In this document: piece by piece, positions 13,123 through 44,172 of the stretch
How the letters are laid out: each line of letters opens with the position of its first letter
Numbering within the stretch: position 1 is the first letter of the stretch
From: Thermoanaerobaculia bacterium
GTDB lineage: Bacteria; Acidobacteriota; Thermoanaerobaculia; Multivoradales; Multivoraceae
Direction of reading: 5' to 3'
Assembly: GCA_022822365.1 (NCBI GenBank)
Contig: JAJEBV010000035.1
Coordinates: 10,082-74,081, forward strand
DNA: 64,000 bases
Made by a program: the position numbers and the translations under genes
The notes under the pieces: generated by a model
The model's database searches: none
The model's input: the letters and a program-made list of their open reading frames with translations, nothing else
What the model was told of the DNA's origin: nothing

Positions 13123-14090
13123 CGGAGACCCGCATCGAGATCGGGCTGACGCCCTGGGTCGACTACCTGGGCACCGAGGCGGGGTCCATCGCCGACCAGG
13201 CGGAGTTCGCCGACCGGCTCGGATTCCACTCGCTGTTCCTGCCGGAAAGCCACTTCAGCGGGGCGGCCTCCTGCCCGTCGCCCATCGTCGTTCTGGCCGC
13301 CGCGGCCGCGCGAACGAAGCAGTTGCGCCTCGGCACGACCTCGTATCTGCTGCCGGTCCGCAACGCCTTCCAGGCGGCTGAGGATGTCGCCGTGCTGGAC
13401 CGCCTCTCCAACGGCCGCGTCATCCTGGGTCTCGGCCGCGGTTTCCGGCCCGCGCTGTTCGCCGCCTTCGGCGTCGACCCCCGCACGAAGCGCCAGCGCT
13501 TCGTCGAGTCTCTCGACCTGATGAAGCGGGCCTGGGCCGGCGAAGCGATCGAGGTCGGCGAACCCGGCACGCGTCAAGCCGTGCGGATCGCGCCGCTGCC
13601 GGTGCAGCAACCGCATCCGGAACTGTGGGTCGCCGCCTTCGGCCCCCTGGCGCTCAAGCAGGCCGGCGAACTGGGCCTTCCTTACCTGTCGTCTCCACTC
13701 GAGACGATCGGCCGGCTCACCAGGAACCACGAGCTCCATCGCGAGGCCCTGCCCCAGGGGGCGCCGCGACCGATCGTGCCGGTCATGCGTACCGTGTTCG
13801 TCTCGGAAGACCGGGCCACCTGCGATCGCGTCCGGTCCGCCCTGACCGCGCAGGCGCTCAGGATGGCGCGCGCCGGTACCCGTCTGGTGCAGGAAGAAGA
13901 GCTGGCGGACATCGAGAACTGGGCGGTCGTCGGCGGTCTCGACCAGGTGCGCGCCGGCCTCGACCGCTACCGTGAGTGCATCGGCATGACCCACGTCATC
14001 GCCCGCTGCGGCGTTCCGGACGCGACGCCGCGGGAGATCGAGGAGTCGATCCAGGCGCTCGCGGAGCTTGCGGGAACGTCAGGCCGATGA
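13119..14090 (+). CDS. LLM-class (luciferase-like) flavin-dependent oxidoreductase with a non-canonical or unresolved start
   Basis: Homology clearly extends upstream of the tracker start (IEIGLTPWVDYLG...HSLFLPESHF). No ATG, GTG or TTG lies in frame between the stop at 13074 and the TTG at 13323. Confidence 0.6.
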   Translation: MTETRIEIGLTPWVDYLGTEAGSIADQAEFADRLGFHSLFLPESHFSGAASCPSPIVVLAAAAARTKQLRLGTTSYLLPVRNAFQAAEDVAVLDRLSNGRVILGLGRGFRPALFAAFGVDPRTKRQRFVESLDLMKRAWAGEAIEVGEPGTRQAVRIAPLPVQQPHPELWVAAFGPLALKQAGELGLPYLSSPLETIGRLTRNHELHREALPQGAPRPIVPVMRTVFVSEDRATCDRVRSALTAQALRMARAGTRLVQEEELADIENWAVVGGLDQVRAGLDRYRECIGMTHVIARCGVPDATPREIEESIQALAELAGTSGR

Positions 14091-14660
14091 AGACGCGCAG
14101 GAATCCGGGAACGCCGCGGCGTCGGTCAGGGCGGGCGCGGGACGGCCAGGCTCCTTCGTGTACTTCTTGACGTGGACCACGCTGCCGTCCGCCGGCAACG
14201 TCGTGTCCCGCACGGTGATCGTGTAGCCGACGTCCGTCGCCGCGGCCGCGTAGACCCAGTTGTGCTGGTTGACGCCGCAGGCGTCCAGCACCTTCAGCAG
14301 CATCTCCCAGTTCGACGGGTCGAAGAAGTAGAACAGGCCGGATTCCCTCGTTCCAATGGGCCGGCTGCCGCCCCTGACCACCTTCGCCGGCTGCGGCGCG
14401 GCCTCGGCGTTCACGAGAACCTCGACGGTCACTTCGTAGCGGCCTTCCTGCAGGCACATGACGGAAGCGCTTTCCACGCAGCCGCCCTCCTCACTGGCGG
14501 TCGGGACCGTTTCAGGCAAGGCCGCATCCTCCGCCACGTCGACCTCGTCGGCGTAAGCGGCGCCGCCGTGCAGTCCCAGCAGCAACAGACAGGCGACGAC
14601 GGCGACAAGCGGGCCGTCGCTCCGGATGAGCCTCAGCGAATCTCCGATTGACTTCGACAT
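14079..14660 (-). CDS. Small secreted protein consisting of a signal peptide plus the four-cysteine C-terminal domain shared with the giant LRR proteins
   Basis: ATG at 14660 preceded by AAGGAG and followed by a signal peptide. The C-terminal 115 aa align with the C-termini of the CDSs at 21231-24893 and 25030-29454 (CLQ-RY-V-V...FFD-NWE-L-KVLD-C...TDVGY-I-V-DT...AFP--C). Confidence 0.6.
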   Translation of the reverse strand: MSKSIGDSLRLIRSDGPLVAVVACLLLLGLHGGAAYADEVDVAEDAALPETVPTASEEGGCVESASVMCLQEGRYEVTVEVLVNAEAAPQPAKVVRGGSRPIGTRESGLFYFFDPSNWEMLLKVLDACGVNQHNWVYAAAATDVGYTITVRDTTLPADGSVVHVKKYTKEPGRPAPALTDAAAFPDSCASSSA

Positions 14661-18171: not shown

Positions 18172-18597
18172 GTGATGCGTTTGGTTCTGGACACGAATGT
18201 CATTGTTGCAGGCTTGCGAAGTCCGAGTGGCGCGTCTGCAGCGTTGATCGACCACGCCTTGAGCGCGACGTTCGTGTTGGTGCTGTCCGTACCTTTGGCG
18301 CTGGAGTACGAGGCCATCTGCCGAGATCCGGCCCAACGAATCGTGTCGGGCTTGAGCGAGACCGAGGTCGAGATCATCGTCTCGGCTCTTTGCGCAGTCG
18401 CGGCCCCCGTTGCAACCCGGTTTCTTTGGCGTCCGCAGTTGCACGATCCGGCCGACGAGATGGTGCTTGAAACCGCCATCAACGGCGGGGCGGACAGCTT
18501 GGTGACCTTCAACCAGAAGGACTTCGGCTCGGCGCCCGAACGCTTCGGCATCGCCCTGCTGTCACCCCAGGAGGCCCTCAGGAGACTGTCGTCATGA
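18172..18597 (+). CDS. PIN-domain toxin (VapC-like)
   Basis: LVLDTNVIVAGL N-terminal PIN motif with conserved acidic residues; 141 aa. Confidence 0.7.
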   Translation: MMRLVLDTNVIVAGLRSPSGASAALIDHALSATFVLVLSVPLALEYEAICRDPAQRIVSGLSETEVEIIVSALCAVAAPVATRFLWRPQLHDPADEMVLETAINGGADSLVTFNQKDFGSAPERFGIALLSPQEALRRLSS

Positions 18598-18848
18598 AGA
18601 AACAGCTCAGTACCTACCCGTTGCGGCTGCCTGCGTCGTTGAAGACCGCGGTCGTCGAGATCAGCCAGGCCGACGGCACGAGCATCAACCAGTTCGTGAC
18701 GACGGCGGTGGCCGAGAAAGTGTCGGCGATGCGGACTGCCGAGTTCTTCACGGGACGCGCGTCCCGGCCTGATATCGAAGCGGCGCGGCGGCTGTTGCGC
18801 AGATCAGGCGGCCAAGCTCCTGATCCCGACGACCGACTGGAAAACTGA
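18594..18848 (+). CDS. RHH/Arc-type antitoxin (HicB-C-like DNA-binding domain)
   Basis: 84 aa (TSINQFVTTAVAEKV). ATGA start/stop overlap with the PIN gene. Confidence 0.55.
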   Translation: MKKQLSTYPLRLPASLKTAVVEISQADGTSINQFVTTAVAEKVSAMRTAEFFTGRASRPDIEAARRLLRRSGGQAPDPDDRLEN

Positions 18849-21230: not shown

Positions 21231-24200
21231 ATGACCCGACCTTCGAAACGAGCCGACAGCGCCTCCGGCTACCGCGACGGACGCCGGGGCGCCGCCCCGG
21301 TTCTCCTCGCGGTGCTCCTCCTGAGCGCGGCGGGTGTCGCCAGGGCGCAGGAGTCCGCCTCCTGCACCGCCACGTCCGCCGCCGTCAGGGAGACGAATCC
21401 CAAGGACGACGCGGCGGCCGAGGCGCTGGCCATGGACTGCGCCTTCCTGCTGGACATCAAGGGCACGCTGGAGGGCAACTCGCCAACCAAGCCGCTCAAC
21501 TGGGCGGCGAACCTCGACATGGCCGATTGGAACGGCATCTCGTTGACGTCCCGCGGCAACCGCGTCGGCGGCATCCTGCTCCCGTCCTGGGGACTGGACG
21601 GCGCAATGCCGACGAGCTTCGCCGCCCTAGGCGGGCTGACTTCGCTTCGGATCACGAGCAGCGGATTGGCCGGCGACGTCCCGGCTCTGCCCGCCAGCCT
21701 GCAACACCTCGACGTCAGCGAGAACGCGTTGGCCGGGACCATCCCCGACCTGAGCGCCCTGACCAGCCTCCGGCAAGTCAACCTCAGCGCCAACGAACTG
21801 ACCGGCGGCATCCCGGCCCTTCCCCCCAGCCTCGCCGCCCTGCGGCTGATCGACAACGATCTGTCCGGCGAGATCGGGGACTTGAGCTCCGTGACCAGCC
21901 TGCTGCACCTTCACCTGGACTACAACGGGTTCACCGGCGACATCCCGGACGCAACCGAGCTGCCCGAAAGGCTTCAGCAGCTCCAGATCAGTCGGAACAG
22001 GCTGAACGGGAACTCCTTTCCCGATCTGAGCGCGCTGACCAGCCTGGTCCACATCTGGCTAGGCGGCAACGAACTGAGCGGAACGCTGCCCGACGCCAGT
22101 TCGCTGCCGGCCGGCATCGAGCGCCTTCTGATCTACGACAACCGACTGACGGGGACCATCCCCGATCTGAGCCCGCTGATGTCGCTCGCCGACCTCTATC
22201 TGTGGGAAAACAAACTGAGCGGTCCGATTCCGCCCGCGAGCGCGCTCCCTCCGAACGTTCAGCGGCTCGCGCTCGGCGGCAACCATCTCGACCACGCAAT
22301 CCCCGACCTGAGCGGACTGACCGCCCTCGAGTGGTTCTACGCGTCCGGGAACGCCTTGACCGGCAACGTCCCGACCGCCACCGAGCTGCCAGCGGGCCTC
22401 GAGCGCCTCATCCTCGGCGGCAACGAACTGACGGGCGGGATTCCGGATCTCGGCACGCGCACTTCGCTCACGCACCTTGATTTGCACCTCAACGCACTGA
22501 CCGGTTCGATCCCGACCACCCTGCCGCCGAGTCTCCAGACCCTGCACCTTGCCGGCAACGACCTCGCCAACGCGATTCCCTCACAGCTTGGCGGTCTGAC
22601 CGCTCTGACGCAGCTCTCGCTCTGCGGCGCCAGACTGACGGGGACCCTGCCGCCGGCCCTGGAGACCAGGCGCCGTCTGGGAACGCTCGCTGTTTCCTCC
22701 TGCGCCGCAATCGCGGACGCTTCGGCGACGGAGGGCGCGGCCGTCGAGTTCACCGTCACGCACGACACCTTCCCCGTGCCGGGCGGCGCCGGGGCGGCGG
22801 ACCTCACCCTCTCGTACGAAACGGCTGACGGCACGGCGACGAGCGGGGACTACACGGGGACAGCCGAAGGCGCGGCGGGAACCGTGACGATCCGCGGCAA
22901 CACGAACACGGAGACAACCACCAGTACGGCGACGATATCCATCGCCACGACGGAGGACGCTGCCATCGAGAGCGACGAAGAGTTCACCGTCACCGTGGCT
23001 CTCCCGAAGGGGACGGAAAGCGTGTTCCTCACACGGGCCGAGGCGACCGGCACGATCGAGGACGACGCGCGCGCGGACGTGACGGTCGACCTCGGCCTCC
23101 CGTCGGCCGGCGCGGTGACGGAGGGCGGCACGCTGACGATCAGCGCGACGGTGAGTCAGGCGCCGTCGGGAACGAGCCTGAGCATCCCCCTCCAGCGGGT
23201 GACGGGAGCTGTCTCGACCGCGACCGCCGCGGACTACTCGCTGGCCGCGGCGATCACGATCGCCGACGGGATGACGACCGGCACGGCCACCCTGACCGCG
23301 GCAGACGACACCGCGGACGAGCCGGTCGAGACTCTCCGTCTCGAGCTCGGGACGCTGCCCGCAGCCCACGCGCGCGGTCCGACGCCTGATGTGGATATCG
23401 CGATAAGCGACAACGACCCGACGACCGTGACGCTGACCACGCCGGACGCCGCCGCCCGGGAGGGCGACGCGTCGGACACCGCCACGATCCGCCTGACGCT
23501 CGGCCGCGGCCTCGTCTTCGGCGAGAGTCTGGCGATTCCGCTCCAGTTCGACGGCGGCGACGCAGGCACGGACTTCACATTGGCCCAGGCCGGCTCGCGA
23601 ACAGGCGTCGCGTTCGATGCGACGAACAGCACGGCGACCTTCACCGGTCCGAGCGCCAGAACAGCGGATCTCGTACTGACTCCGGCATCCGACCCCGATG
23701 CCGAGGACCTTGCGGTGACCGTGTCCATGCCGGCGACTTCGACCGGCGCCGCGCCGAAGCTCACCGCGAGGAACCTCGACGGCGGCGCCGCGGGCAGTCT
23801 TTCGGGACACGGCCTGATCACGATCACCGACGACGAAACGAAGAGGCTCCTCCTCTCCGTGACGAGATTGATGACCGTGGTCGAGGAGAGCAACGCGAGC
23901 TACACGGTGAAGCTTGCTTCCCGGCCGACCAGCGACGTCACGGTAACCGCTGACGGCCACGAGCGCACCGCCCTGATGCTCGACAAGGCGACCCTGATCT
24001 TCTCGGCATCCGCCTGGAATGCGGCGCAGACCGTCACCGTTACGGCCACTCCCGACCCGGACACCGCGAACGAAACCGTCACACTGACGCACGCAGCCAG
24101 CGGCGGCGGCTACAACGGCGTTTCGGAGACCGTGACGATCGTCGTGACGGACAACGACGAGACGGAGCCGCCGCCACCGCCGGCGCCCGAACCACCACCG

Positions 24201-24893
24201 CCGGCGCCGGAACCACCAACGCCAAAGCCCGAACCGCCACCACCGACGCCGGAACCGCCGGAGGCGAGCTTCAGCGTTGCCGGCGCCGCGTGCGCGGACG
24301 ACCTCTGCACGGCCCTCACCGGCGTGCCCGTAACCTTCGAGGACACGAGCACCGGCGCCGTCACGGAACGCGCATGGCATACCGGTGACAACGGCGTCTT
24401 CGACGACTCGACTCTTGCCCACGCCTGGACGGAACCCGGCTTCTACCGGCTAACGCTGACGGTCAGCGGCCCCGGCGGATCGGACGATACTCACGCCGAC
24501 TTCCTGGTCCGGCCGGGCGATCCCGCGGGAACCTGCGATCCCGACGACTTCACCCTCTGCCTCCAGGACGAGCGCTACCGGGTCGAGGTGGACTGGTGGA
24601 CGGCGGGCGGCGAAACCGGACGGGGCGCCGTCGTCCGCGAGGGCACGAACGACTCCGGCATCTTCCGGTTCTTCGACGACGCGAACTGGGAGGTTCTCGT
24701 GAAGGTCCTGGACGCCTGCGAGGTGGATGGCCGCCACTGGTTGTTCGCGGCCGCCACCACGGACGTGGGCTACGAGATCGCCGTGACCGACACGGCGGGC
24801 ACGGGCCCTCCGCGGGTGTACCGGAACGAACCCGGCATGCCGGCCGCGGCCACTACCGATACGAGCGCCTTTCCGAACGCCTGCGAACATTGA
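21231..24893 (+). CDS. Giant secreted protein: plant-type LRRNT and about sixteen 24-residue LRRs, Calx-beta-like repeats, a Pro-rich linker, a PKD domain and a conserved four-cysteine C-terminal domain
   Basis: 1220 aa with a signal peptide. LRR consensus LxxLxxLxLxxNxLxGxIPDLSxL. PPPPAPEPPPPAPEPP linker. PKD motif (VTFEDTSTG...WHTGDNG). Confidence 0.8.
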   Translation: MTRPSKRADSASGYRDGRRGAAPVLLAVLLLSAAGVARAQESASCTATSAAVRETNPKDDAAAEALAMDCAFLLDIKGTLEGNSPTKPLNWAANLDMADWNGISLTSRGNRVGGILLPSWGLDGAMPTSFAALGGLTSLRITSSGLAGDVPALPASLQHLDVSENALAGTIPDLSALTSLRQVNLSANELTGGIPALPPSLAALRLIDNDLSGEIGDLSSVTSLLHLHLDYNGFTGDIPDATELPERLQQLQISRNRLNGNSFPDLSALTSLVHIWLGGNELSGTLPDASSLPAGIERLLIYDNRLTGTIPDLSPLMSLADLYLWENKLSGPIPPASALPPNVQRLALGGNHLDHAIPDLSGLTALEWFYASGNALTGNVPTATELPAGLERLILGGNELTGGIPDLGTRTSLTHLDLHLNALTGSIPTTLPPSLQTLHLAGNDLANAIPSQLGGLTALTQLSLCGARLTGTLPPALETRRRLGTLAVSSCAAIADASATEGAAVEFTVTHDTFPVPGGAGAADLTLSYETADGTATSGDYTGTAEGAAGTVTIRGNTNTETTTSTATISIATTEDAAIESDEEFTVTVALPKGTESVFLTRAEATGTIEDDARADVTVDLGLPSAGAVTEGGTLTISATVSQAPSGTSLSIPLQRVTGAVSTATAADYSLAAAITIADGMTTGTATLTAADDTADEPVETLRLELGTLPAAHARGPTPDVDIAISDNDPTTVTLTTPDAAAREGDASDTATIRLTLGRGLVFGESLAIPLQFDGGDAGTDFTLAQAGSRTGVAFDATNSTATFTGPSARTADLVLTPASDPDAEDLAVTVSMPATSTGAAPKLTARNLDGGAAGSLSGHGLITITDDETKRLLLSVTRLMTVVEESNASYTVKLASRPTSDVTVTADGHERTALMLDKATLIFSASAWNAAQTVTVTATPDPDTANETVTLTHAASGGGYNGVSETVTIVVTDNDETEPPPPPAPEPPPPAPEPPTPKPEPPPPTPEPPEASFSVAGAACADDLCTALTGVPVTFEDTSTGAVTERAWHTGDNGVFDDSTLAHAWTEPGFYRLTLTVSGPGGSDDTHADFLVRPGDPAGTCDPDDFTLCLQDERYRVEVDWWTAGGETGRGAVVREGTNDSGIFRFFDDANWEVLVKVLDACEVDGRHWLFAAATTDVGYEIAVTDTAGTGPPRVYRNEPGMPAAATTDTSAFPNACEH

Positions 24894-25029
24894 AGAGGCG
24901 GCGCGGGCGCCAACGCGCTCGCCGCGCGGACCCGAGTTCCGATAAGGTCGGAGAGTCACCTCTGGTGGCGGCAGCCCCTTGGACAGGAGTCGGGGAGATG
25001 ACAACCCGGATGTAGCGACAGTCAGTCTG

Positions 25030-28000
25030 ATGGTTCGTCGGGCAACCCGGCTGTTGCCCGCGCCACTTGCGGCCCTGTTCCTGTTCGGCGTGGGGTCGCG
25101 TCTTCACGCCCAGACGACCTGCACGACAACCGACACGGCGGTCGCGGCCATAGGCGCGAGCGACCCCGCCGCGCTGGCCGGCGACTGCACGATCCTGCTC
25201 GGCGCGAAGGCGGGCTGGGGAGGCAGCTCGACCACGCTGAACTGGGCAAGCACCCTGAGCATGTCCTCGTGGGACGGAGTCGCCGTGAGGGACAGCCGCG
25301 TCGTCCGTCTCGATTTTCGCTTCAAGAGTCTCTCCGGGAGCATCCCCGATCTGAGCGGCCTCGCCAACCTCGAGCGTCTGGATCTGAGCTGGAACGGCCT
25401 GACCGGGAACATCCCGGCCACACTGGGTTCCCTCACCAAACTCACGGCTCTCGTTCTGCACGGCAACCAGTTGACCGGAAGCATCCCCGACCTGAGCGGA
25501 CTCGCCAACCTCGAGACCCTGGACCTGGGCTCTAACGGCCTGACCGGGAACATCCCGGCCACACTGGGTTCCCTCACCAAACTCAAGTGGCTCTCTCTGA
25601 CCACCAACCAGTTGGACGGGAGCGCCCCCGCCCTTGGCGCCCTCGTCAACCTCGAGGACCTCATTCTCTCCAAGAACCAGCTCTCCGGGAGTATCCCCGA
25701 CCTCAGCAGTCTCGCCAGTCTCGAACAGCTCGATCTCGCCGGCAACCGGCTGACGGGGTCGATCCCCGCCACGCTCGGTTCACTTGCCAACCTGGAGCAA
25801 CTGACTCTCTGGAACAACCAACTGTCGGGAAGCATCCCCGACCTGAGCGGACTCTCCAACCTGGTCAGCCTCCATCTCCACCAGAACCGTCTGACCGGGA
25901 GCATCCCGGCTTCGTTGGGGTCGCTCGCCGAACTCCTGAACCTGCAACTCCACAAGAACCAGTTGACGGGGAGCATCCCCAAGGAGCTGGGCTCTCTCGC
26001 CAAGCTCCGGCAGCTCTTCCTCAACGAAAACAGGCTGACGGGCAACATCCCCGCGGAACTGGGTTCTCTCGTCAACGTGACCAACCTTCAGTTGCACAAG
26101 AACCAACTGACGGGGCCGATCCCCGACCTGAGCGCCCTCACGAGTCTCTGGCTGCTCTCGCTCGAGGACAACCAACTGACGGGGCGGATCCCCGACCTCG
26201 ACGACCTTGCAAGCCTCGCGTATCTCTCGCTCGAAGACAACCAACTGACGGGAACGATCCCCGCTCTTCCCGCCAGCGTCCAGTCCTTGAGCCTTCAACG
26301 CAACCAGGTCTCCGGGAGCATCCCCGACCTGAGCGCCCTCACGGGCCTCCACACGCTGTACCTCCATCAGAACGAGCTGACGGGGACGATCCCCGCAACG
26401 CTGGGCGACCTGACCAGCCTCGGGCAACTGCATCTCGCCGCGAACAGGCTGACCGGGGGCATCCCCGGCGACCTGGGCAAACTGACCAGCCTCTGGGGTC
26501 TCTCTCTGTGCGGCAACGATCTCGATGCCGCGGCGACCCTGCCGACGGCGCTGCAAGCCCGCCGGACGGCGTCGGAACTGGACGTCTGGCCATGCGTCTG
26601 GATCGACGACGCGACGGCTGTAGAAGGGCAGCCCCTCGCGTTCACCGTGACGTACTCGACCCAACCGGTGCGGGGAGCGACCGGCGCCGCCAGTCTGAGA
26701 CTGACCTGGTGGACGATCGACGGCACCGCAAAGACCCCCGGCGACTACACGAGAAGGTCGGGCCTGATCACGATTCCCGGCAACACGGACAGTTCGACCT
26801 ACCTCAGCACTGCGACGGTCAGCGTGCCGACCGTCGTCGACGCCGTCGCCGAAGGCGCGGAGACCTTCATCGTCCGGATCAACAGCAGTGCCGCGGTCTT
26901 CGTAGACCCCGACGCCGCGACGGGCACCATTACCGAGCCGATCCCCGATCCGACCGTCGATATCTCCGTCAACAACGGCGGCTCGCTGACCGAAGGCGGG
27001 ACGGTGACGATCACGGCGACGGTCAGCCGGGCGCCTTCCGGCTCGAGCCTTGCCGTCCCCTTGCAGCGGGTCGCGGGCCACTCCGCCGCTGCAACCACGG
27101 ACTACTCCCTGTCCGGCTCGCCGGCGGGCACGATCACCGTGGCCGACGGCGCGACAACCGGCACGCTCACCCTGACGGCGGCGAGCGATTCCATCGACGA
27201 AACCGACGAGACGCTCCGCCTGACGCTCGGCGCGGTAGCCGGCTACGACCACGGCTCGAACTCCCACGTGGACGTCACGATCACGGACAACACGGCGACC
27301 TCCGTGACCCTGTCCCTGCCGGACGCCGCCGCCGAAGAAGGCAACGCGGCAAACACCGCCACCATCCGGCTGACCCTGGGCCGCGGCCTGGTGGACGGCG
27401 AGGTCCTGGCCGTACCGTTGCAGTTCACGGGCGGCGCGGCTGGCACGGACTTCACGCTGGCGCTCTCCGGGGCGCCGTCCGGCGTCACCTTCGACGCGAG
27501 CAGCAGCACGGTCACCTTCACCGGACCGCAGACGGGCGCCGCCGCCACCGCGGCGGACATCACCCTGACCCCCGCCGACGACGACGACGCGGAAGACCGA
27601 ACCGTCACCGTGTCCATCCCCGCGACCTCCACCGGCGCCGGGACGATCCTCACCGCCACCAATCTCGACGGCGGCGCCACGGGCAGCCGCACCGGCAACG
27701 GCCAGATCGCGATTGCCGACGACGACAGGAAGGCGCTCGTTCTCCTCCCGACGACGTCGGTAACCGTGGTCGAGGAAGCCACGGAGACCTACACTGTGAA
27801 CCTCGCCACGCGGCCCAGGGGCGACGTGACCGTCGCCATCACCGGCTATGGACAGACGGACTTGACGCTCGACAAGGCGAGCCTGACCTTCCGGGCCACG
27901 ACCTGGAACGTGCCGCAGACCGTCACCGTGACCGCCAACCCGGACACGAACACGGCGAACGAGTCCATCCCGCTGACGCATACCGCCAGTGGCGGCGGCT

Positions 28001-29454
28001 ACGCCTCCATCGCCGGCACGCTGACGGTCAACGTGACGGACAACGACACGGCCGGTCTTGTCATCTCGACCATGGTCCCGGTGGACGAAGGACGCAGTGC
28101 AACCTACACGGTCAAGCTCGCCACCGAACCGAGCGCCACCGTCACGGTTGTCGTCTCCGGCTTCGAGAACTCCGACCTGACCCTCGACGAGACGGCCCTC
28201 ACCTTCACGACCGCCAACTGGAACGAAGAGCAGACGGTGACGGTCACCGCCGACGAGGACACCGATCTCGCGGACGATACGGTCGACCTCGACCATGTGG
28301 CCGATGGCGGGGACTACGCGGGCGTGACGCGATCCATCACCGTCAACATCAAGGACGACGACGAAGCGGTCGCCACCTTCGAACTGGCGGGCGCGAGCAT
28401 CGACGAGGCGGGCGGCAGCCGAAACGTCATGGTCCGCCTGGACCCGACGCCGATCAAGTCCACCATGCTGAGCTACACCCTGTCCGGCGCACCCGTCCAC
28501 GGCGACGACTACACGGTCAGCGGCGCCAACGGCAACTCGGGGACGGCATCGGTTCCCGCGGGCGCGGCCAGCGTCGACATCACCGTAGAGATCATGGACG
28601 ACGCGGTGGTCGAAGACGCCGAGACCATCGTCCTGACCCTGGCCGACGGGCCGGGTTACACGCCGGGCACTCCGCGAGTCCATCGCCTGATCATCATGGA
28701 CAACGACGAGGCGGAACCGCCGCCACCACCACCGCCGCCACCCGAGCCACCGCCGACCGTGGAGCCGCCACCTCCAACGCCAACCCCGCCGTCCGGGCCG
28801 GTCGGGCCGGCCGGGCCGCTCGTGGCGAGCTTCGCCATCTCCGGCGCCGAGTGCACGGAAGACCTCTGCACGACCTTTACCGGCGCCCCGGTCACCTTCA
28901 CGGACACGAGCACCGGCGCCGTGGCCGAGCGCAAGTGGGACACCGGCGACGGAGAGACGTCACGCAGGCCGATCCTCAACCACTCCTGGGCCGAGCCCGG
29001 CTTCTACAGGGTGGCGCTCACCGTCCGCGGCGACGGCGAGGAAGACCAGGCCGAAGCCGACTTCCTGGTCCGGCCCAGCCAGCCGGACGGGACCTGCGCT
29101 CCCGACCCGTGGACACTCTGTCTCCTGAACGAGCGCTACCGCGTGCAAGTCGACTGGCGGACACGGAGCGGCGACACCGGCCGAGGCTTCGCCCTGTACC
29201 AGGGAACCAACGATTCCGGGCTCTTCTGGTTCTTCGACCGGGACAACTGGGAGGTCCTCGTCAAGGTGCTGGACGGCTGCGCCGTCGACGGCCGCCACTG
29301 GGTGTTCTCGGCGGCAACGACCGACGTCCGCTACGAGATGACGGTGACCGACACGCTTGGCGCGAGCCCCCCGAAGGTCTACATCAACGAACTCGACAGG
29401 CCCGCCGTCGCCCTCACCGATACGTCGGCTTTCCCCAACGGTTGCGAACGTTGA
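25030..29454 (+). CDS. Second giant secreted LRR / Calx-beta-like / PKD protein, paralogous to the upstream gene
   Basis: About 1475 aa from the ATG at 25030 (signal peptide). Same architecture and C-terminal domain as 21231-24893. Near-identical internal LRR DNA repeats. Confidence 0.8.
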   Translation: MVRRATRLLPAPLAALFLFGVGSRLHAQTTCTTTDTAVAAIGASDPAALAGDCTILLGAKAGWGGSSTTLNWASTLSMSSWDGVAVRDSRVVRLDFRFKSLSGSIPDLSGLANLERLDLSWNGLTGNIPATLGSLTKLTALVLHGNQLTGSIPDLSGLANLETLDLGSNGLTGNIPATLGSLTKLKWLSLTTNQLDGSAPALGALVNLEDLILSKNQLSGSIPDLSSLASLEQLDLAGNRLTGSIPATLGSLANLEQLTLWNNQLSGSIPDLSGLSNLVSLHLHQNRLTGSIPASLGSLAELLNLQLHKNQLTGSIPKELGSLAKLRQLFLNENRLTGNIPAELGSLVNVTNLQLHKNQLTGPIPDLSALTSLWLLSLEDNQLTGRIPDLDDLASLAYLSLEDNQLTGTIPALPASVQSLSLQRNQVSGSIPDLSALTGLHTLYLHQNELTGTIPATLGDLTSLGQLHLAANRLTGGIPGDLGKLTSLWGLSLCGNDLDAAATLPTALQARRTASELDVWPCVWIDDATAVEGQPLAFTVTYSTQPVRGATGAASLRLTWWTIDGTAKTPGDYTRRSGLITIPGNTDSSTYLSTATVSVPTVVDAVAEGAETFIVRINSSAAVFVDPDAATGTITEPIPDPTVDISVNNGGSLTEGGTVTITATVSRAPSGSSLAVPLQRVAGHSAAATTDYSLSGSPAGTITVADGATTGTLTLTAASDSIDETDETLRLTLGAVAGYDHGSNSHVDVTITDNTATSVTLSLPDAAAEEGNAANTATIRLTLGRGLVDGEVLAVPLQFTGGAAGTDFTLALSGAPSGVTFDASSSTVTFTGPQTGAAATAADITLTPADDDDAEDRTVTVSIPATSTGAGTILTATNLDGGATGSRTGNGQIAIADDDRKALVLLPTTSVTVVEEATETYTVNLATRPRGDVTVAITGYGQTDLTLDKASLTFRATTWNVPQTVTVTANPDTNTANESIPLTHTASGGGYASIAGTLTVNVTDNDTAGLVISTMVPVDEGRSATYTVKLATEPSATVTVVVSGFENSDLTLDETALTFTTANWNEEQTVTVTADEDTDLADDTVDLDHVADGGDYAGVTRSITVNIKDDDEAVATFELAGASIDEAGGSRNVMVRLDPTPIKSTMLSYTLSGAPVHGDDYTVSGANGNSGTASVPAGAASVDITVEIMDDAVVEDAETIVLTLADGPGYTPGTPRVHRLIIMDNDEAEPPPPPPPPPEPPPTVEPPPPTPTPPSGPVGPAGPLVASFAISGAECTEDLCTTFTGAPVTFTDTSTGAVAERKWDTGDGETSRRPILNHSWAEPGFYRVALTVRGDGEEDQAEADFLVRPSQPDGTCAPDPWTLCLLNERYRVQVDWRTRSGDTGRGFALYQGTNDSGLFWFFDRDNWEVLVKVLDGCAVDGRHWVFSAATTDVRYEMTVTDTLGASPPKVYINELDRPAVALTDTSAFPNGCER

Positions 29455-29540: not shown

Positions 29541-30800
29541 GTGCCCACCTGGATCATGCGCAAGTGTCTGACTCTGCTTGCTCTGGCGACGTTCGTCGGC
29601 GCGTGGCCGGCGTCATCGCAAGATGAAGACGGCGCCGCGGCGCCGGCGACCTTCGGCCAGGCGGTGCGCGACGCGGACGTCTCGGTCGGGCTCCGCTACC
29701 GCGTCGAGCAGTCGGACGACGACGCCTTCGACGACGCGGCGCTCGCCTCCACCCTGCGCACGAGCCTCAAGCTGCGGACGAAGGCCTTCCGCGGCTTCTC
29801 CTTCCTGCTCGAGGCGGAGGAGGTAACGCCGGTCGGCAACGACAGCACGTACCGCAATCTGGGCTACGGCGGACTCGACAACGGCGTACGCGACCGGCCG
29901 GTCATCGCCGACCCGGCGCTCACCGCGATCAACCAGGCGGCGGCTCGCCTGGAACGCGGGCCGGTCGCGTTCACGCTCGGCCGGACGGAACTCCTGATCG
30001 GCGACCAGCGCTTCGTCGGCGCGGTCGGCTGGCGCCAGCATCACCAGGCGTTCGACGCGGCCGCCCTCGACACGAAGCTCGCGGCCGACTGGATGCTCCG
30101 CTACGCCTTCCTCGACCGCGCTCACCGGATCACCGGCGCCGAGGAGGCGATGGGCTCCCATGTGCTCCATGTCTCCGGCCCGGCGGGTCCGGGCACACTG
30201 GCGCTGTTCGGTTACCTGCTGGACTACGAGCGGCCCGGCGCCGCGACCAACTCGACATCCAACTGGGGCGCCAGCTACAACGGCTCGCGCGACGCCGGCG
30301 CGGCCTCCGTCCTGTGGGAACTCCAGTACGCCGTGCAGTCGGACTGGGCGGACCACCCCGGCAGCGTCGACCTCGACTACCAGAAGACCGGCATCGGCTT
30401 CACGCGCGGCGACGTCAGCGTGCGCGCGGTGCGCGAGGCCCTCGACGGCGACGGCACGTACGGTTTCCGCACGCCGCTGGCGACGCTGCACGGTTTCAAC
30501 GGCTGGACCGACAAGTTCCTCGGGACGCCGGCCGACGGCCTGGTCGACGTCTACCTTCGCCTCGATCACAACCTGGACACCTGGAACTGGACGGTGCGCT
30601 GGCACCAGTTCCGCTCCGCGGTCGGCAGCATGGACTACGGCTCGGAAGTCGACGCGATGGCCGTCTGGAACACCCCCTGGAATCAGGACTTCGGCATCAA
30701 GCTGGCGCGGTACAGCGCGGACGAGTTCGCCACGGACACGTTCAAGGTCTGGATCTGGACGTCCTGGAACGTCAGCCTGCGTTCCGCAGGCGGCCGTTGA
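29541..30800 (+). CDS. Outer-membrane beta-barrel protein, alginate-export (AlgE-like) family
   Basis: Signal peptide. Alternating amphipathic beta-strand pattern with a C-terminal aromatic-rich end. Confidence 0.45.
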   Translation: MPTWIMRKCLTLLALATFVGAWPASSQDEDGAAAPATFGQAVRDADVSVGLRYRVEQSDDDAFDDAALASTLRTSLKLRTKAFRGFSFLLEAEEVTPVGNDSTYRNLGYGGLDNGVRDRPVIADPALTAINQAAARLERGPVAFTLGRTELLIGDQRFVGAVGWRQHHQAFDAAALDTKLAADWMLRYAFLDRAHRITGAEEAMGSHVLHVSGPAGPGTLALFGYLLDYERPGAATNSTSNWGASYNGSRDAGAASVLWELQYAVQSDWADHPGSVDLDYQKTGIGFTRGDVSVRAVREALDGDGTYGFRTPLATLHGFNGWTDKFLGTPADGLVDVYLRLDHNLDTWNWTVRWHQFRSAVGSMDYGSEVDAMAVWNTPWNQDFGIKLARYSADEFATDTFKVWIWTSWNVSLRSAGGR

Positions 30801-38409: not shown

Positions 38410-39447
38410 CTATGCCCAGCGCGGCCCAGGCTTGTTCGTGGACGGCGTAGCATGGACTCCGGGAATCCGATCCCTGATCGCGAGCGCCAGTTCCCATCCG
38501 TAGCTCCGCGTGTTGTCCGTCACGACCCGCTTGGCTCCCGTCGCCTTGACGTACGCGAGGGTCTCCTCAAAGTCGGCATGATTCGACAAGGCAACACAGT
38601 AGCTGCTACTGGAGTACATTGTCAGCGGATCGTTGTGGCCATCCCGACCCGACATGAAGGCGCTGCACGCGATGCTCGTTCCGCCAACCGGCTCGTTGCC
38701 CCGCCCATCGCCCTTCGAGTACAACCGCACGTAGGAACGCTGCCTCAGTGCTGACTCGCCTTCATCCGAATCGAGCGCGATCAGATCGGCAGCCGCTAAG
38801 CCGAACCGCCTATAGACCTCGACTTCCCCAATCAGCCGCCGGCTCGCCACGATAGGAACATCAACGCCGCCAGCGAGCACCGTCAATACGCGCTCCATCG
38901 TTCCTCGGTGGGCCCTGATATGTACCGGCCCCTGACGTACGCGCTCACACACCAGAACGAACAGGCATGCCTCTGCTTCCGCCTGCGTGTACTTGCGAAC
39001 GCTCGCCGGACTGCCGTAGGTGGCGTCGACGACGAGTTCGTCAACTTGGATCACTCGATCGAGCGGCCAGCCGAAGTCGCCGGAGTAGCCGAGTCGTCGT
39101 CCGTCCGAAAGCTCCAGTGCCGTCTGGCAGGCACCGAGCATGTGGTTCGACGGCAGCAGAAGGAGCTGCGAAGCGTCTTCAAGGACGCGCTTCTCGCCTC
39201 GCTTCAGCCTATGGAGATTGGATCTGTACTCGAGGTCGACATCACGCTCATCCACGAGCAGCGCATACGTTTCCGGGCTCATGATGAGGTCCTGAAGCCC
39301 CTTGCTGCGCTCGAAGTCCGCCATGTGGTCGTCGTGCACATGGGTCTGAATGCGCCACGGACAGCCCTCGGCGAATCCGTCGCACACCACCGCCGGGCCA
39401 AGACGCACCGCACCCGTAGCCAAGACGTCAACTTCTGCTGGAGCCAC
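38410..39447 (-). CDS. MBL-fold metallo-hydrolase; last gene of the sulfur-modification/defence operon
   Basis: HVHDDH metal-binding motif. 20-nt overlap with the upstream gene. Confidence 0.65.
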   Translation of the reverse strand: MAPAEVDVLATGAVRLGPAVVCDGFAEGCPWRIQTHVHDDHMADFERSKGLQDLIMSPETYALLVDERDVDLEYRSNLHRLKRGEKRVLEDASQLLLLPSNHMLGACQTALELSDGRRLGYSGDFGWPLDRVIQVDELVVDATYGSPASVRKYTQAEAEACLFVLVCERVRQGPVHIRAHRGTMERVLTVLAGGVDVPIVASRRLIGEVEVYRRFGLAAADLIALDSDEGESALRQRSYVRLYSKGDGRGNEPVGGTSIACSAFMSGRDGHNDPLTMYSSSSYCVALSNHADFEETLAYVKATGAKRVVTDNTRSYGWELALAIRDRIPGVHATPSTNKPGPRWA

Positions 39448-40168
39448 TCTGGACGTTCTCCCGAAGATGGGCCCGAATCAGGCCTTCGATGCTCCCCCGC
39501 CCAACTTGAGCCATCGATTCGCCGAACTTCTCGGCTCCTACCAACGTGAAAATCCTCTTACCAAGCCGGCCTGATGCGCCGCGCAAGCCGATAGCCCGAA
39601 TCGCGCCAGCAAGAGCCGCATCGCGTTCGGCCTGTAGCAAGCTCCCGAGAGCGGCCACGACGTCCTCGTCAACGACGGCACCCATGAACACGTAACGCTT
39701 CTCTACGACCGGCCGCATCCCCACGACTTCCTGGACGCAGTCGGGAACGGCGCGACCGGAGCGCTCGCGAAGCTGCACGACCTGACGCACTTCCTTGCTC
39801 GTCAGGTGCTCGGACAAGACCGCTTCCGCGACCACCCGCCGGTCTTCGCTATCCGCGAGCCGGACCAGCTCGGCAGCGGATGAGAAGCCGACGAAGTCCC
39901 CTCTTCCCCAGTCCACCAAATGCTGAACCTCCGGCGGAAGGTCCAGTAATCGGAGGAACCGGCCAACACCCGTAACGTCGAGGTCTGTTTTCCTGGCACT
40001 CTCGACTCGGCTCGAACCCTCCCGCTCAGCGCGCCTGTACAGCCGCCCACACTCGACCGGGGAAAAGGGTCTGTTGCGTTGATGCCGCCCGTATCCGACG
40101 GACATCTTGAGCTGTGCGAGTTCCTCGGGACTCAGCCCCCGCCACACCCTATGAACCAAGGACGCCAC
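39428..40168 (-). CDS. Hypothetical protein in the defence operon, possibly a ParB-like or HTH DNA-binding partner
   Basis: 246 aa. Overlaps both neighbours. No confident family assignment. Confidence 0.4.
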   Translation of the reverse strand: MASLVHRVWRGLSPEELAQLKMSVGYGRHQRNRPFSPVECGRLYRRAEREGSSRVESARKTDLDVTGVGRFLRLLDLPPEVQHLVDWGRGDFVGFSSAAELVRLADSEDRRVVAEAVLSEHLTSKEVRQVVQLRERSGRAVPDCVQEVVGMRPVVEKRYVFMGAVVDEDVVAALGSLLQAERDAALAGAIRAIGLRGASGRLGKRIFTLVGAEKFGESMAQVGRGSIEGLIRAHLRENVQSGSSRS

Positions 40169-40973
40169 GTTCCATCAGCGCTTCCTCGATCAGCATGGCC
40201 GCAGTCTCGTCTTGGTTCATCCCCTCCTCCACCGCGACACGGCGAAGCGCAGCGTGAACGTCCATCGTCACGGTGGCGTTGATCTGAGTCACCTTGTCAG
40301 CGCTCTTCGCCCTCTCGATCAGCTCGTCGACACTCCCTTCGGGGGCTCGTTCGCGCACCTTCGTCAGCTTCTTCTGCTGAACACCGGACATGTCTCCCAT
40401 CGCCCTAGCCAGCTTCACGGCGTCGGCAACGATCGGTTGGCCGTCCGGCCCGACGGACGTGTCCTGAGCCTTCAATGCGACCTTCACGTCCACAGCACCG
40501 TCGTCGACCATCTTCTTCAGCTCCGGCTTGAGCCTCGGGTACTTGACGTGGCTGCGGACTGTGTCAGCCGAGAGTCCGGTCGCCTCCACGACAGCCTTCT
40601 GCGAGCCGTAGTGGTTGTACAGATGGGTGATTCCGTCGACAAGCTCCTTGCCCGAGAGCTTTCTCCGAATCAGATTCTCCGTGATCGAGATGGCCTTGGC
40701 GTGAGCCTCGGGAACACGCTCGTCCAGAATCGCTGCAGGGATCGCCTCCCTGCCGAGCCGCCTGTGCGCGAGGAATCGTCGCTGTCCCGTGAGGATCTCC
40801 CACCGCCCCGTCTCAACCGCCTCGCACACCACGATGGGCTGCAGAAGGCCCAGTTTCTCGATGCTGCTCGCCAACTCATCCACGTCTGCCATGGAAGGCG
40901 AGGTTCGCGCCTGCGCCTTGCCGATCGTCAGGTCGTCCAGCGGCACATCCCTGTATCCGACTATCTTCGCCAT
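40149..40973 (-). CDS. ParB/Srx-fold (ParB N-terminal nuclease-like) protein, DndB-like in position
   Basis: LLQPIVV...GQRRF ParB-N motif; 274 aa. Confidence 0.6.
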   Translation of the reverse strand: MAKIVGYRDVPLDDLTIGKAQARTSPSMADVDELASSIEKLGLLQPIVVCEAVETGRWEILTGQRRFLAHRRLGREAIPAAILDERVPEAHAKAISITENLIRRKLSGKELVDGITHLYNHYGSQKAVVEATGLSADTVRSHVKYPRLKPELKKMVDDGAVDVKVALKAQDTSVGPDGQPIVADAVKLARAMGDMSGVQQKKLTKVRERAPEGSVDELIERAKSADKVTQINATVTMDVHAALRRVAVEEGMNQDETAAMLIEEALMERGVLGS

Positions 40974-42358
40974 GCTCGTTCTCCAGGTTCGTCAGTCACC
41001 GGCGCGAGATCGCCGGCGGAAAGCCCGAGGATACTCATCAGCTCCTGCCTCGTGAACGCCTCCCCGGCCATGCCGGACGACTCCACCACGTCCTCGAAGA
41101 GGCGCGCCTTCTCTTCGAGGATCGACCCGATCCGCTCCTCGATCGAGTCCTGCACGAGGAACCGGATCACGTGCAGGGGCTCCTCTCGCTCGAAACGGTG
41201 CGCTCGGAAGATCGCCTGCATCTCGACCGCCGGATTCCACCATCGGTCGAAGAGAACCACATGGGACGCCTCTCCCAAGTTGAGGCCGACACCGCCCGCG
41301 CGCAGCGAGACGAGCAGAACCCGAGGCGCCCTTTCTTCCCTGAAGCGGTCCATCGCCGCCTCACGCTTCGCGAGCGGCATCGCACCCGTGACGAGGTCCG
41401 TAGTTAGGCCCAGTCGCGGCGAAATCGCCTCCAACGTCCTCACGAACTGGGAGAAGACGAGAATCCGCGCCGAAGGACCCGCCGCATGGCACAGCACCCG
41501 CAGGGAATCCAGTTTGGACGAAACGCTCATAGAGGAATCGAAATTGCAGATCAGCTTCAGTCGCGTGAGGAGCCCCAGCAAAGCCGCAGTGTCGCCGTCC
41601 TCGTTGCGCCGCCGCACAAGACGGGCACGCGTCGTCCAGATCTCGTCGTACTCGGCGCGCTGGTCCGCCGACAGATCCACCGGGAGGTCCTGAATCAGGA
41701 CCGGAGGCAGTTCCGCACGGACCGCGGTCTTCCGCCGTCTGAGCATCAGCCTGTCCAAGTCTCTTTGGAGCTCCCCCCTATGCGCCCTCCGGACTGGACC
41801 GTCGGATTCCAGAAACTCCAACAGCGTCTGCAGTTCTGCCTCGTCGTTCTCCAGAGGCGTAGCCGACAGTGCCCACGCACGAGTCCGCGGAAGCAGAAGG
41901 CAGGCCAAAGCCGTTGCTGAGTTGCGGTTCTTGATCCTCTGGGCCTCGTCCAGCACAACCAAGTCAAACGTGCCAGAAGGAATACGGTCGAGTCCGTCCT
42001 GGCGAATCTGCTCATACGAAGCGATGAGGACCGGGATCGGAAGAAGGTAATACGCCTCTCGGTCGGTCGCTCGTCCTTGCACCCGTCTTGCGGTCAGGGA
42101 AGGTGCCCAAGCGTTGATCTCCCGCAGCCAGTTCGTAGTCAACGATGCAGGCGCCACGATCAGCACCCGGCGAATCCCGTGGTCCCTTCTCAACAGCAGC
42201 GCTAGAGCGACCGCAGCCTGTACTGTCTTGCCGAGGCCCATCTCGTCGGCCAAAAGAGCACCGCGCGTGCGATAGAGGAAGGCCACCCCTTCCCACTGAT
42301 AGTCGCGCAGCGTTGAAGGCACCCCGAGTTCCTCCTCCGCCATCTGGCGGAGGGTCAT
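40961..42358 (-). CDS. SNF2-family helicase (DEXH-box plus helicase-C)
   Basis: LADEMGLGKT, DEAQRIKN and helicase-C motifs. ATG at 42358 preceded by GGAGAAGGA. Confidence 0.75.
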   Translation of the reverse strand: MTLRQMAEEELGVPSTLRDYQWEGVAFLYRTRGALLADEMGLGKTVQAAVALALLLRRDHGIRRVLIVAPASLTTNWLREINAWAPSLTARRVQGRATDREAYYLLPIPVLIASYEQIRQDGLDRIPSGTFDLVVLDEAQRIKNRNSATALACLLLPRTRAWALSATPLENDEAELQTLLEFLESDGPVRRAHRGELQRDLDRLMLRRRKTAVRAELPPVLIQDLPVDLSADQRAEYDEIWTTRARLVRRRNEDGDTAALLGLLTRLKLICNFDSSMSVSSKLDSLRVLCHAAGPSARILVFSQFVRTLEAISPRLGLTTDLVTGAMPLAKREAAMDRFREERAPRVLLVSLRAGGVGLNLGEASHVVLFDRWWNPAVEMQAIFRAHRFEREEPLHVIRFLVQDSIEERIGSILEEKARLFEDVVESSGMAGEAFTRQELMSILGLSAGDLAPVTDEPGERAWRR

Positions 42359-42381
42359 CGCATCGGGGTCCTTCTCCGAAT

Positions 42382-44172
42382 CTAGGGAAACGCCCACACT
42401 GCCGCGGCTTGCCTGGCGATCAGGTTCTGCCGCTCCTCGACCGCCTCGGGAGTCCACTCACACTGCTCGCAGAGCGCCCGAGTGATGGCAACGCTGCTCC
42501 GCTTGTAGCTACCGATCTTGTCGTGAAACGAGCGGTTGAAGTTGGTACCGGCTCGATTGTCCGTCGGCCCCATGAGAGTCAGATTACCCACCCGGTCCAC
42601 CCAATCGGCGCAATCCACCTCCCGAAAGCCGCTCCAAGTTGGCCAGTGCTGAGCCGCCGAGGGCAGGACGTGTTCTAGCGTGGTTTTGCCCTCGTTTAGC
42701 AGCGGAGGATCGTTCTGCTCTGCCCGGTTCACGCCTCGCAACAACTGGCGGGCCAGGCGTCCTCTCTTCATTCGAGTACTCCGAAGTGCCCGGATGAAGT
42801 ACGCGTCGTCCAGCACACCCCATCCGTCGCAACCGCCAAGGAACTCCCCGAAAGCAAGGTCCGCGACATCTGTGGCCGCGGCGATCTCCCGAGCGTAGTC
42901 GGCGAACTTCCTCTCAAACTCCGACGGGGCGAAGCGCTGCCTCACGAACGCCGTCCTGAGTACAAAGGCCGACAACCGCTGTAAGTTCCTCATCACGGCC
43001 TTGGCGATCCGGGCGCGACGTCGGCCATCAGTATCGCGGACAAACCTGTCCAGCAGGGCGAAAACGAGCGGGTGAGTGACCTTGTAGCCGCGGAGTTCTC
43101 CCAGCAGCACGGAGAGATTCCGCCGCGACGTTACAGCACCCGCCGCCACGTCGAACACCCCGACAAAGCCCGGATCGGGATTCGTGGAAGTCATCATGCG
43201 AAAGAGTTCCGCAGCCGCCGGCGAGCAAACATCCTCGACCAACGCTGACACATAGCGCGTCGATTTGGCCTTTTCTTCGCCAGCTTCTGTCGTCACGGAC
43301 CGACGACGATCCGTCAGCGCCCTCCGTGCATCGCGATAGAAGTGGCTGCCTCTCAGGAACCCCCACTTGCACTGAAGACGGCACCGTAGGTACTCAGCAG
43401 CGAGATTACCTCTCGGGAAGAGAGTGCGAACACGCTCGAGATGCTCGTGGATCGCCTCCTTCCCCTCTAAATCACTGTCTCCACCGAAATAGGAGTAGAG
43501 GTGATTCCGAAGACGGTCCAGATCGTCCAGGGTCTTGCCTCTGGAATTGATCGTCTCGAAAACGGCATTGGCATCGACTTCCGGAGGAAGGCGGAGACAC
43601 GCCACTTCAAGACGTTGGATCAAATAGTCGAAGTAGTCCCTTGATGCTTCGAGCCCCAGCCCGTCGACGAACTGCTCTATCTTCTGCCACGCGGCCGTCA
43701 GCTTGCCGTTCGTCCCGATCGTCCGGCCCCGGATCATCTGTCGGTAGGCCGCCGAGTCATTCCGCGGAGGTTTGAGCCGGCGCGTGTACTCGTCTGCCTC
43801 CGCCAGCCGGCAAGGCCGGTTTGCGTCCAAGTCGAACAACAATCGAAGCGCGATCGCCTCGCGCTGAGGATCGCTGTCGTCCCGAGCGAACCGCCTGCAG
43901 AAGGCGGCGGAGACGAGTGAAACTGTGACCATCCTCTGCTGGCCGTCGTTGATCTCCCACACTCCGTCCCCGTTGCCGGCGAGGATCACCGCACCAAGGA
44001 AGTAGCAACCGCTCTTCGCCTCGACGGCCTCCTGGAGGTCCTCAAGCAGGTCGCTAACCTCGTTCTGACTCCAGTCGTAGTAGCGCTGATGCCACGGCAC
44101 CTCGAATCGCCCATCGAAGAACAGATCTGAGAAGCGCGTTGCCTCGGCTTGGACGACGGTCGGCTGGGTCAT
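42382..44172 (-). CDS. DUF262 (ParB-like NTPase, DGQQR) plus DUF1524 (His-Me finger) nuclease, GmrSD/SspE-like
   Basis: N-terminal WHQRYYDW...INDGQQR and C-terminal TLEHVLP...W. ATGA overlap with the upstream PAPS-reductase-like gene. Confidence 0.75.
   Translation of the reverse strand: MTQPTVVQAEATRFSDLFFDGRFEVPWHQRYYDWSQNEVSDLLEDLQEAVEAKSGCYFLGAVILAGNGDGVWEINDGQQRMVTVSLVSAAFCRRFARDDSDPQREAIALRLLFDLDANRPCRLAEADEYTRRLKPPRNDSAAYRQMIRGRTIGTNGKLTAAWQKIEQFVDGLGLEASRDYFDYLIQRLEVACLRLPPEVDANAVFETINSRGKTLDDLDRLRNHLYSYFGGDSDLEGKEAIHEHLERVRTLFPRGNLAAEYLRCRLQCKWGFLRGSHFYRDARRALTDRRRSVTTEAGEEKAKSTRYVSALVEDVCSPAAAELFRMMTSTNPDPGFVGVFDVAAGAVTSRRNLSVLLGELRGYKVTHPLVFALLDRFVRDTDGRRRARIAKAVMRNLQRLSAFVLRTAFVRQRFAPSEFERKFADYAREIAAATDVADLAFGEFLGGCDGWGVLDDAYFIRALRSTRMKRGRLARQLLRGVNRAEQNDPPLLNEGKTTLEHVLPSAAQHWPTWSGFREVDCADWVDRVGNLTLMGPTDNRAGTNFNRSFHDKIGSYKRSSVAITRALCEQCEWTPEAVEERQNLIARQAAAVWAFP

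Follow-up and report, generated by a model that had tools for sequence, protein, structure and literature searches.

We analysed a 64,000-nucleotide stretch of DNA from a Thermoanaerobaculia bacterium (GenBank assembly GCA_022822365.1, contig JAJEBV010000035.1, positions 10,082 to 74,081 of the forward strand; hereafter 'the window'), in which a small secreted protein and two giant secreted leucine-rich repeat (LRR) proteins carry the same C-terminal domain of about 120 residues. The small protein is encoded on the minus strand (14079–14660; 193 codons, starting with MSKSIGD) and is made up of a signal peptide, a short acidic linker and the domain. Its Sec-type signal peptide was read from the sequence at residues 1–37 (14550–14660, minus strand), with predicted cleavage between AYA and DE; the N-terminus of the product reads MSKSIGDSLRLIRSDGPLVAVVACLLLLGLHGGAAYA up to the cleavage point, followed by DE. 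The domain itself (copy 1; residues 57–193, with cysteines at positions 61, 69, 128 and 188) occupies 14082–14492 on the same strand and was delimited by tblastn, by alignments A1 and A2 and by AlphaFold2 modelling.

Both giants lie on the plus strand, and their layout was established by translation and Pfam searches. Giant protein 1 (21231–24893, 1220 aa) runs from a signal peptide through LRRs, Calx-beta-like repeats and a proline-rich linker to a PKD domain (24318–24503, aa 1030–1091; Pfam PKD_4/PKD) and, directly behind it, copy 2 of the shared domain (24501–24890), which was located by BLASTP and tblastn, modelled by AlphaFold2 and ends one residue before the stop codon. Giant protein 2 (25030–29454, 1474 aa) has LRRs, Calx-beta, a PKD domain (28879–29064; Pfam PKD_4/PKD) and directly downstream copy 3 (29062–29451; BLASTP and tblastn), again ending one residue before the stop codon. 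The open reading frame (ORF) of this second giant opens at 24979 (1491 aa, the PKD domain falling at aa 1301–1362 in this numbering), and the start at 25030 (MVRRATRLL) was inferred from signal-peptide-like sequence; an exact-sequence lookup of the protein gave no match, probably owing to a strain or start-codon difference.

Alignment of copy 1, the last ~130 aa of the 193-aa protein, with the C-termini of the giants gave 44% identity for giant protein 1 (BLASTP E = 1e-33) and 42% for giant protein 2 (E = 2e-32), with 68% mutual identity between copies 2 and 3. Searching the whole window with the three copies by tblastn returned exactly three places, the next match having an E value of ~2.6, and the PKD match in each giant stops exactly where the shared segment starts. 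The C-terminal homology put forward in the original prediction is thus highly significant; the coordinates that it gave for the two giants (24540–24890 and 29095–29451) fall inside the tblastn spans, and its placement of the domain behind PKD, at the extreme C-terminus of both proteins, was borne out by the Pfam matches.

Codon-position GC contents of the 193-aa ORF were 0.65, 0.50 and 0.87, as in the genes of this 68% GC window, which identifies the ORF as a real gene; the antisense plus-strand ORF (14172–14651) had a third-position GC of just 0.68, the pattern of a shadow frame. One database protein (P0001) differs from the 193-aa product by a single residue (R13Q), and a word-indexed search returned 60 relatives, nearly all of them stand-alone proteins of 165–240 aa without a Pfam domain, mostly named 'hypothetical' and originating from Holophagales or Acidobacteriota metagenome-assembled genomes (MAGs). 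The domain therefore also exists as a free-standing secreted module, as had been proposed. In all homologues of the 193-aa protein, a hydrophobic stretch at the N-terminus leads into A-x-A/G. A lipoprotein reading of the N-terminus (VVAC) was rejected, since Cys24 is replaced by Gly in the orthologue from MAG JAJEHN01, leaving no lipobox.

Ten amino-acid changes separate the 193-aa protein from the same JAJEHN01 orthologue; the 135-aa domain accounts for one of them, and the other nine lie in the signal peptide or linker. The gene is flanked by a divergent carboxylesterase/MFS pair on one side and a convergent luciferase-like monooxygenase gene on the other, and this arrangement is kept around orthologues of just 50–55% identity. 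A second, divergent subfamily consists mostly of ~145-aa stand-alone proteins, whose genes hold a fixed position between a methyltransferase gene and a lipid A acyltransferase-like gene. Judged from their sequences and gene order, purifying selection acts on the stand-alone forms, which are syntenic orthologues, and the synteny kept in two subfamilies, together with changes that fall mostly outside the domain, indicates that the domain on its own is a conserved gene product under selection.

Two kinds of insertion were seen among stand-alone relatives in alignment A1: an acidic ~30-aa insertion (…RRPQGPDESDEDY…LAKGH…) before the last strand in many orthologues, and an Asp/Asn-rich ~50-aa insertion in the second loop in another group. 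The relatives concerned are P0012–P0049 and P0051/P0055/P0057/P0058, and the window copy has neither insertion.

Likeness to known families was assessed with hmmscan (Pfam-A and NCBIfam), a sequence profile search of the PDB and Foldseek, the Pfam-A scan covering 81 proteins (the three window copies and 78 further domain-bearing proteins). No Pfam-A match at E ≤ 0.1 was obtained for the 193-aa protein, PKD included, and on the segment itself there was no match to PKD (PF00801/PF18911), to P_proprotein or to any carbohydrate-binding module (CBM) or lectin family; PPC (PF04151) was absent from all Pfam scans. The most frequent family in the scanned proteins was PKD_4 (24/58). A model covering the domain would match nearly all of the 78 further proteins, so no Pfam model covers it. 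In NCBIfam, the three window copies returned nothing beyond PA0111_fam, at 15.7 bits against a cut-off of 230. Profile searches of the PDB with alignments A2 and A4 produced sub-threshold matches only, to mannose-phosphate isomerase (1zx5, E = 0.011) and to CRABP2 (E = 0.028–0.08 over ~40 residues, a 'NWExLLKVL'-like stretch), both of which were taken as chance. Foldseek comparison of the models of copies 1 and 2 with 350,542 PDB chains, and of one model with BFVD, gave no match at E ≤ 0.001 and TM-scores of 0.3–0.38 at best; galectins appeared only at E > 0.3 and TM ~ 0.2, and a calycin/FABP-like beta-barrel was rejected, with lipocalin and avidin chains found only at TM 0.2–0.3 and E > 0.5.

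Particular attention was given to known C-terminal signals. Hidden Markov models (HMMs) of the C-terminal domain (CTD) of the type IX secretion system (T9SS), namely PF18962 and PF13585 in Pfam (E ≤ 0.1) and TIGR04183 and TIGR04131 in NCBIfam (E ≤ 10), did not match the window copies, none was found in the Pfam scans of the 78 further family members, and the Ig-like beta-sandwich of solved T9SS CTDs gave no fold match to the domain models. Signatures of PEP-CTERM, LPXTG, GlyGly-CTERM and MYXO-CTERM were likewise absent, with no NCBIfam match on the three window copies, and the proteins end in AFP(D/N)xC plus 0–5 residues, with no hydrophobic helix. The earlier statement that the domain falls outside known C-terminal signals thus holds for the T9SS, PEP-CTERM and LPXTG models of Pfam-A and NCBIfam. 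A literature search yielded nothing relevant to the domain, nor to type IX secretion in Acidobacteriota. By the sequence and fold tests used here, the domain is outside every described family, and it is unnamed.

In a full HMMER search with the family profile, 1.84 billion cluster representatives (clusters at 50% identity) gave 9,926 matches at E ≤ 1e-3, 8,667 at E ≤ 1e-10 and 3,474 at E ≤ 1e-30. The domain, originally presented as new, is therefore unannotated but not unseen, with ~10,000 such clusters in public data; the database names of its carriers derive from other domains ('PKD domain-containing', 'VCBS repeat-containing'). Scanning one genome per GTDB species confirmed at least 558 domain loci, the best 80 of which all came from Thermoanaerobaculia, 'Candidatus Multivorans', 'Holophagales' or unclassified Acidobacteriota MAGs; among these best 80, at least 18 were located on a single 3.7-Mb chromosome (OZ220482.1). 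Members of the divergent subfamily likewise stem from MAGs labelled Thermoanaerobaculia or Acidobacteriota. As far as named matches show, the family appears to be specific to Thermoanaerobaculia (Acidobacteriota). The window DNA is 99.35% identical to an ENA metagenome contig and ~90–93% identical to the Thermoanaerobaculia MAG JAJEHN01. Marine sponges and corals, and soils too, commonly harbour Thermoanaerobaculia, and several of the MAG name series encountered (SB06xx, RHO1, COS1, Plut) presumably stem from sponge and coral microbiome studies.

Motif and conservation statistics were calculated from 462 unique domain instances. The core motif, C-x7-CL-x3-R(F/Y)-x-V ... (S/T)G-x-F-x-FF-x3-N(W/V)E-x-L-x-KVLDGC-x2-N-x3-WVF, continues after WVF with ... 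V-x-D(T) ... Y ... AF-x(1-3)-C and is present in all three window copies. Positions R, F, F, N, E, K, W and D are each 96–100% conserved, with R, N, E, K and D reaching at least 98% across these divergent instances. With its charged or polar members (R, N, E, K, D) and its aromatics (F, F, W), this set would be compatible with a conserved binding site. The same degree of conservation, together with the stand-alone secreted forms and the many peptidase partners of the domain, could also speak for a biochemical activity of its own, be it as a small enzyme, as a disulfide-rich protease inhibitor or in self-association or covalent cross-linking via the invariant Lys/Asn/Asp/Glu. We consider such an activity very unlikely: no enzyme or inhibitor family showed similarity by sequence or fold, the matches being sub-threshold only, and tandem repeats on adhesins would be unexpected for an enzyme or inhibitor.

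Occupancy of the four cysteines (C1–C4) was 0.87, 0.95, 0.96 and 0.94, respectively, and all four were present in 378 of the 462 instances; they are conserved, but not strictly invariant as first described. The commonest incomplete patterns were loss of C1 alone (39 instances, probably in part an alignment effect), of C1 with C2 (16 instances) and of C3 with C4 (13 instances). Because C1 and C2 are lost jointly, and C3 and C4 likewise, this pattern supports disulfide pairing of C1 with C2 and of C3 with C4, in agreement with the two disulfides suggested earlier. The AlphaFold2 models of copy 1 (predicted local distance difference test (pLDDT) 91.1, predicted TM-score (pTM) 0.87) and copy 2 (pLDDT 92.9, pTM 0.87) are both of high confidence, compact and all-beta, with 8–10 strands and one short helical turn past the third cysteine. 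The C1–C2 bond would lie at the N-terminal hairpin, and C3–C4 would tie the C-terminal tail to a central strand of the ~120-residue domain. Mean-field direct coupling analysis (610 instances) was not used for strand topology, its top couplings being dominated by subfamily signal. In the divergent subfamily (P0305–P0424, e.g. '…DTGYFWFF…NVELVVKVVDGRAFN…ADTSAF'), an Arg stands in place of C3, C4 is lost jointly with it, and the NWE and SGLF motifs read NVE and TGYF, respectively.

Position and copy number of the domain were counted in six-frame ORFs of 82 genomic loci (108 domain-bearing ORFs) and in the 150 best cluster representatives. Nearly all ORFs (99/108) end 0–2 residues past the domain, and a C-terminal copy was found in 132 of the 150 representatives. 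Along with the dozens of unrelated cargo proteins per genome, among which proteases and adhesins are prominent and PKD or Ig-like domains often stand directly upstream, and with the restriction of the family to one lineage, these counts favour a C-terminal export or sorting domain, which would be read after Sec export by a Thermoanaerobaculia-specific outer-membrane translocon or sortase-like system, as T9SS reads its CTD in Bacteroidota, and might undergo cleavage or serve in attachment to the surface. However, 31 of the 108 ORFs (~30% of carriers) contain 2–4 copies in tandem; nine of the 150 representatives carry two tandem copies at the N-terminus, placed between a genuine signal peptide and FG-GAP or other domains; one protein bears copies at both ends, and internal copies also exist. 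A tag read at a free C-terminus should be neither tandem, nor N-terminal in mature proteins, nor devoid of cargo, as the conserved syntenic stand-alone proteins are. In addition, neither the T9SS CTD models of Pfam and NCBIfam nor solved CTD folds match the domain, and no candidate machinery was found beside the genes: PorV, PorU, SprA/Sov and GldKLMN-type T9SS components were not seen within the 64-kb window, and an Alginate_exp-like barrel encoded behind giant protein 2 recurs in only two close relatives. A pure sorting tag thus appears a poor fit, and we regard an export or sorting function as unlikely, though it is the chief rival of the reading that we favour; of the 'sorting or anchoring' role first suggested by the C-terminal position, it is the sorting half that is weakened by the tandem, internal and N-terminal copies.

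A bolder possibility, distinctly unlikely in our estimation, is that the domain serves as the address tag of an undescribed Thermoanaerobaculia sorting or surface-display pathway, similar in principle to T9SS CTDs or to cohesin–dockerin systems and based on a new fold. The cargo delivered to the cell surface by such a pathway would comprise dozens of proteases and eukaryotic-like adhesins, LRR proteins of sponge and coral symbionts among them, and stand-alone copies would regulate the pathway or compete with it.

Partners of the domain included repeat and adhesion domains (PKD, fn3, Calx-beta, He_PIG, cadherin, SWM_repeat, FG-GAP, LRR, Spondin_N) as well as enzymes (Reprolysin-like (M12), Matrixin (M10), M14, M23 and S8 peptidases, sulfatase), with PKD often just upstream of the domain. 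Domain-bearing genes are often arrayed, as in locus L073, where four are consecutive. Frequent fusion behind PKD to secreted peptidases (Reprolysin-like, Matrixin, M14, M23, and S8 with P_proprotein), and the terminal position of what is predicted to be a compact, disulfide-bonded unit, would agree with an accessory role in structure or maturation, in which the domain binds no ligand itself and serves as a disulfide cap, an intramolecular chaperone or a protease-protecting pro-domain, much as the PPC or P-domains do in secreted peptidases. We consider this explanation very unlikely as well: the domain occurs equally on non-enzymatic LRR, FG-GAP, SWM and cadherin proteins, the segment matches neither PPC nor P_proprotein in Pfam, and such a role would not readily account for the conserved stand-alone genes or for copies that are tandem or N-terminal.

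As a tentative interpretation, and the one we favour, we infer that the domain is an autonomous binding or anchoring module directing many secreted proteins to one ligand. It is preferred to a sorting tag on account of the tandem copies, the N-terminal copies and the cargo-less syntenic stand-alone proteins of two subfamilies. A signal peptide and the domain make up whole proteins, so the domain works without cargo; its copy number and its placement, in tandem and at both ends, resemble those of binding and anchoring modules; the cargo is heterogeneous yet always extracellular; and there are many copies per genome of what is modelled as a compact fold. Mechanistically, the domain would be a non-catalytic targeting module with a single ligand shared by its carriers, the most plausible candidate being a glycan or another polymer, either from the envelope or matrix of the bacterium itself or, in lineages living with sponges and corals, from the matrix of the host. 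Through this binding, secreted enzymes and adhesins of dozens of kinds, in this case both LRR giants, would be kept at one place, tandem copies would raise avidity, and the 193-aa protein would represent the same binding unit released alone, e.g. to occupy, cap or cross-link the ligand.

Several observations weigh against a binding module. The strictness with which ORFs stop within two residues of the domain exceeds what is usual for binding modules and is more like that of export or sorting domains; the invariant charged residues may equally represent buried structural salt bridges; and Foldseek returned no significant structural similarity to any lectin or CBM. Gene neighbourhoods gave no functional hint either: synteny around the stand-alone genes is conserved, but the neighbours are housekeeping or unrelated genes, and no conserved partner gene was found across the 82 loci.

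A shared accessory module ending secreted multidomain proteins is of a well-known general kind, and it is this domain family that is new to annotation. T9SS CTDs (Por_Secre_tail, PF18962/TIGR04183; type B, PF13585/TIGR04131) are comparable in being small beta domains at the extreme C-terminus of dozens of unrelated cargo proteins (enzymes and adhesins) in a genome, often behind PKD or Ig-like domains and confined to one bacterial lineage. In contrast to these, the present domain has ~120 aa with two putative disulfides and no HMM or fold match, is often tandem, sometimes N-terminal or internal, and conserved as a stand-alone protein, and is found in Acidobacteriota, for which the literature gave no link to T9SS. 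SLH, LysM, GW and choline-binding repeats and CBMs are likewise modular, non-catalytic units at either end of many extracellular proteins, often in tandem, also present as small stand-alone proteins and numerous per genome; the domain differs from them in lacking any sequence or structural relation and in a C-terminal bias much above that of most CBMs or LysM. PPC (PF04151) and PKD accessory domains share with it the placement of a C-terminal beta domain behind PKD on secreted peptidases, whereas the domain studied here has no Pfam match, is not limited to peptidases, probably contains disulfides and has tandem and stand-alone forms. Type I dockerins of the cellulosome offer the parallel of one terminal module across many secreted proteins, which would suggest docking to a common partner. 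Dockerins, however, are ~70-aa calcium-binding, helical, EF-hand-like duplications, unlike a 120-aa domain predicted to be all-beta with disulfides, and no cohesin-like partner was identified.

Despite its presence in ~10,000 clusters, the domain has no Pfam or NCBIfam model, name or structural relative, and its carriers are annotated through other domains only, or as hypothetical. It marks a large part of the Thermoanaerobaculia secretome, including eukaryotic-like LRR, cadherin and FG-GAP proteins, a group presumed to act in contact with the host. A definition of the family would bring an immediate gain in annotation. Its ligand or receptor, once found, would reveal by what means extracellular enzymes and adhesins are positioned in these diderm bacteria, and the sorting-signal reading, if true, would imply a new export or anchoring route.

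Turning to the surroundings of the giants, two related loci (L079 and L080) have a DUF3604 gene upstream of a conserved 442-aa/DUF2911 gene pair, where the window has the LRR genes; LRR giants at that position were also found in the 99%-identical ENA contig. The comparison suggests that the tandem LRR genes arose by insertion or replacement in this lineage. The Alginate_exp-like protein (29541–30800, plus strand, 419 aa) begins 87 bp past the gene of giant protein 2 and has a signal peptide and a weak match to outer-membrane beta-barrels. As a partner it was rejected: its recurrence beside a domain-bearing gene is limited to two close relatives (L007 and L013), which argues against a general link to the domain. 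Large clusters in an all-against-all ORF comparison of the 82 loci were likewise discarded as an artefact of shadow ORFs overlapping domain genes; long antisense or alternate-frame ORFs of this kind were seen across L001–L082, which are from high-GC genomes.

Elsewhere in the window, a PIN-domain gene (141 aa) overlaps an 84-aa gene at 18172–18848 on the plus strand, between the DUF2911 and MFS genes. The two probably form a toxin–antitoxin pair, and the pair is absent from the same syntenic position in L079 and L080. On the minus strand, 38410–46648 forms an island of lower GC content (61–65%, as compared to 68–72% around it), with genes for MBL-fold (Lactamase_B_2), HTH_ParB, ParB_N, SNF2/DEAD helicase, GmrSD (DUF262 + DUF1524) endonuclease, PAPS_reductase-like and class-V aminotransferase (IscS-like) proteins, a gene set which we take to resemble DNA phosphorothioation-type (Dnd/Ssp-like) modification-restriction defence islands.

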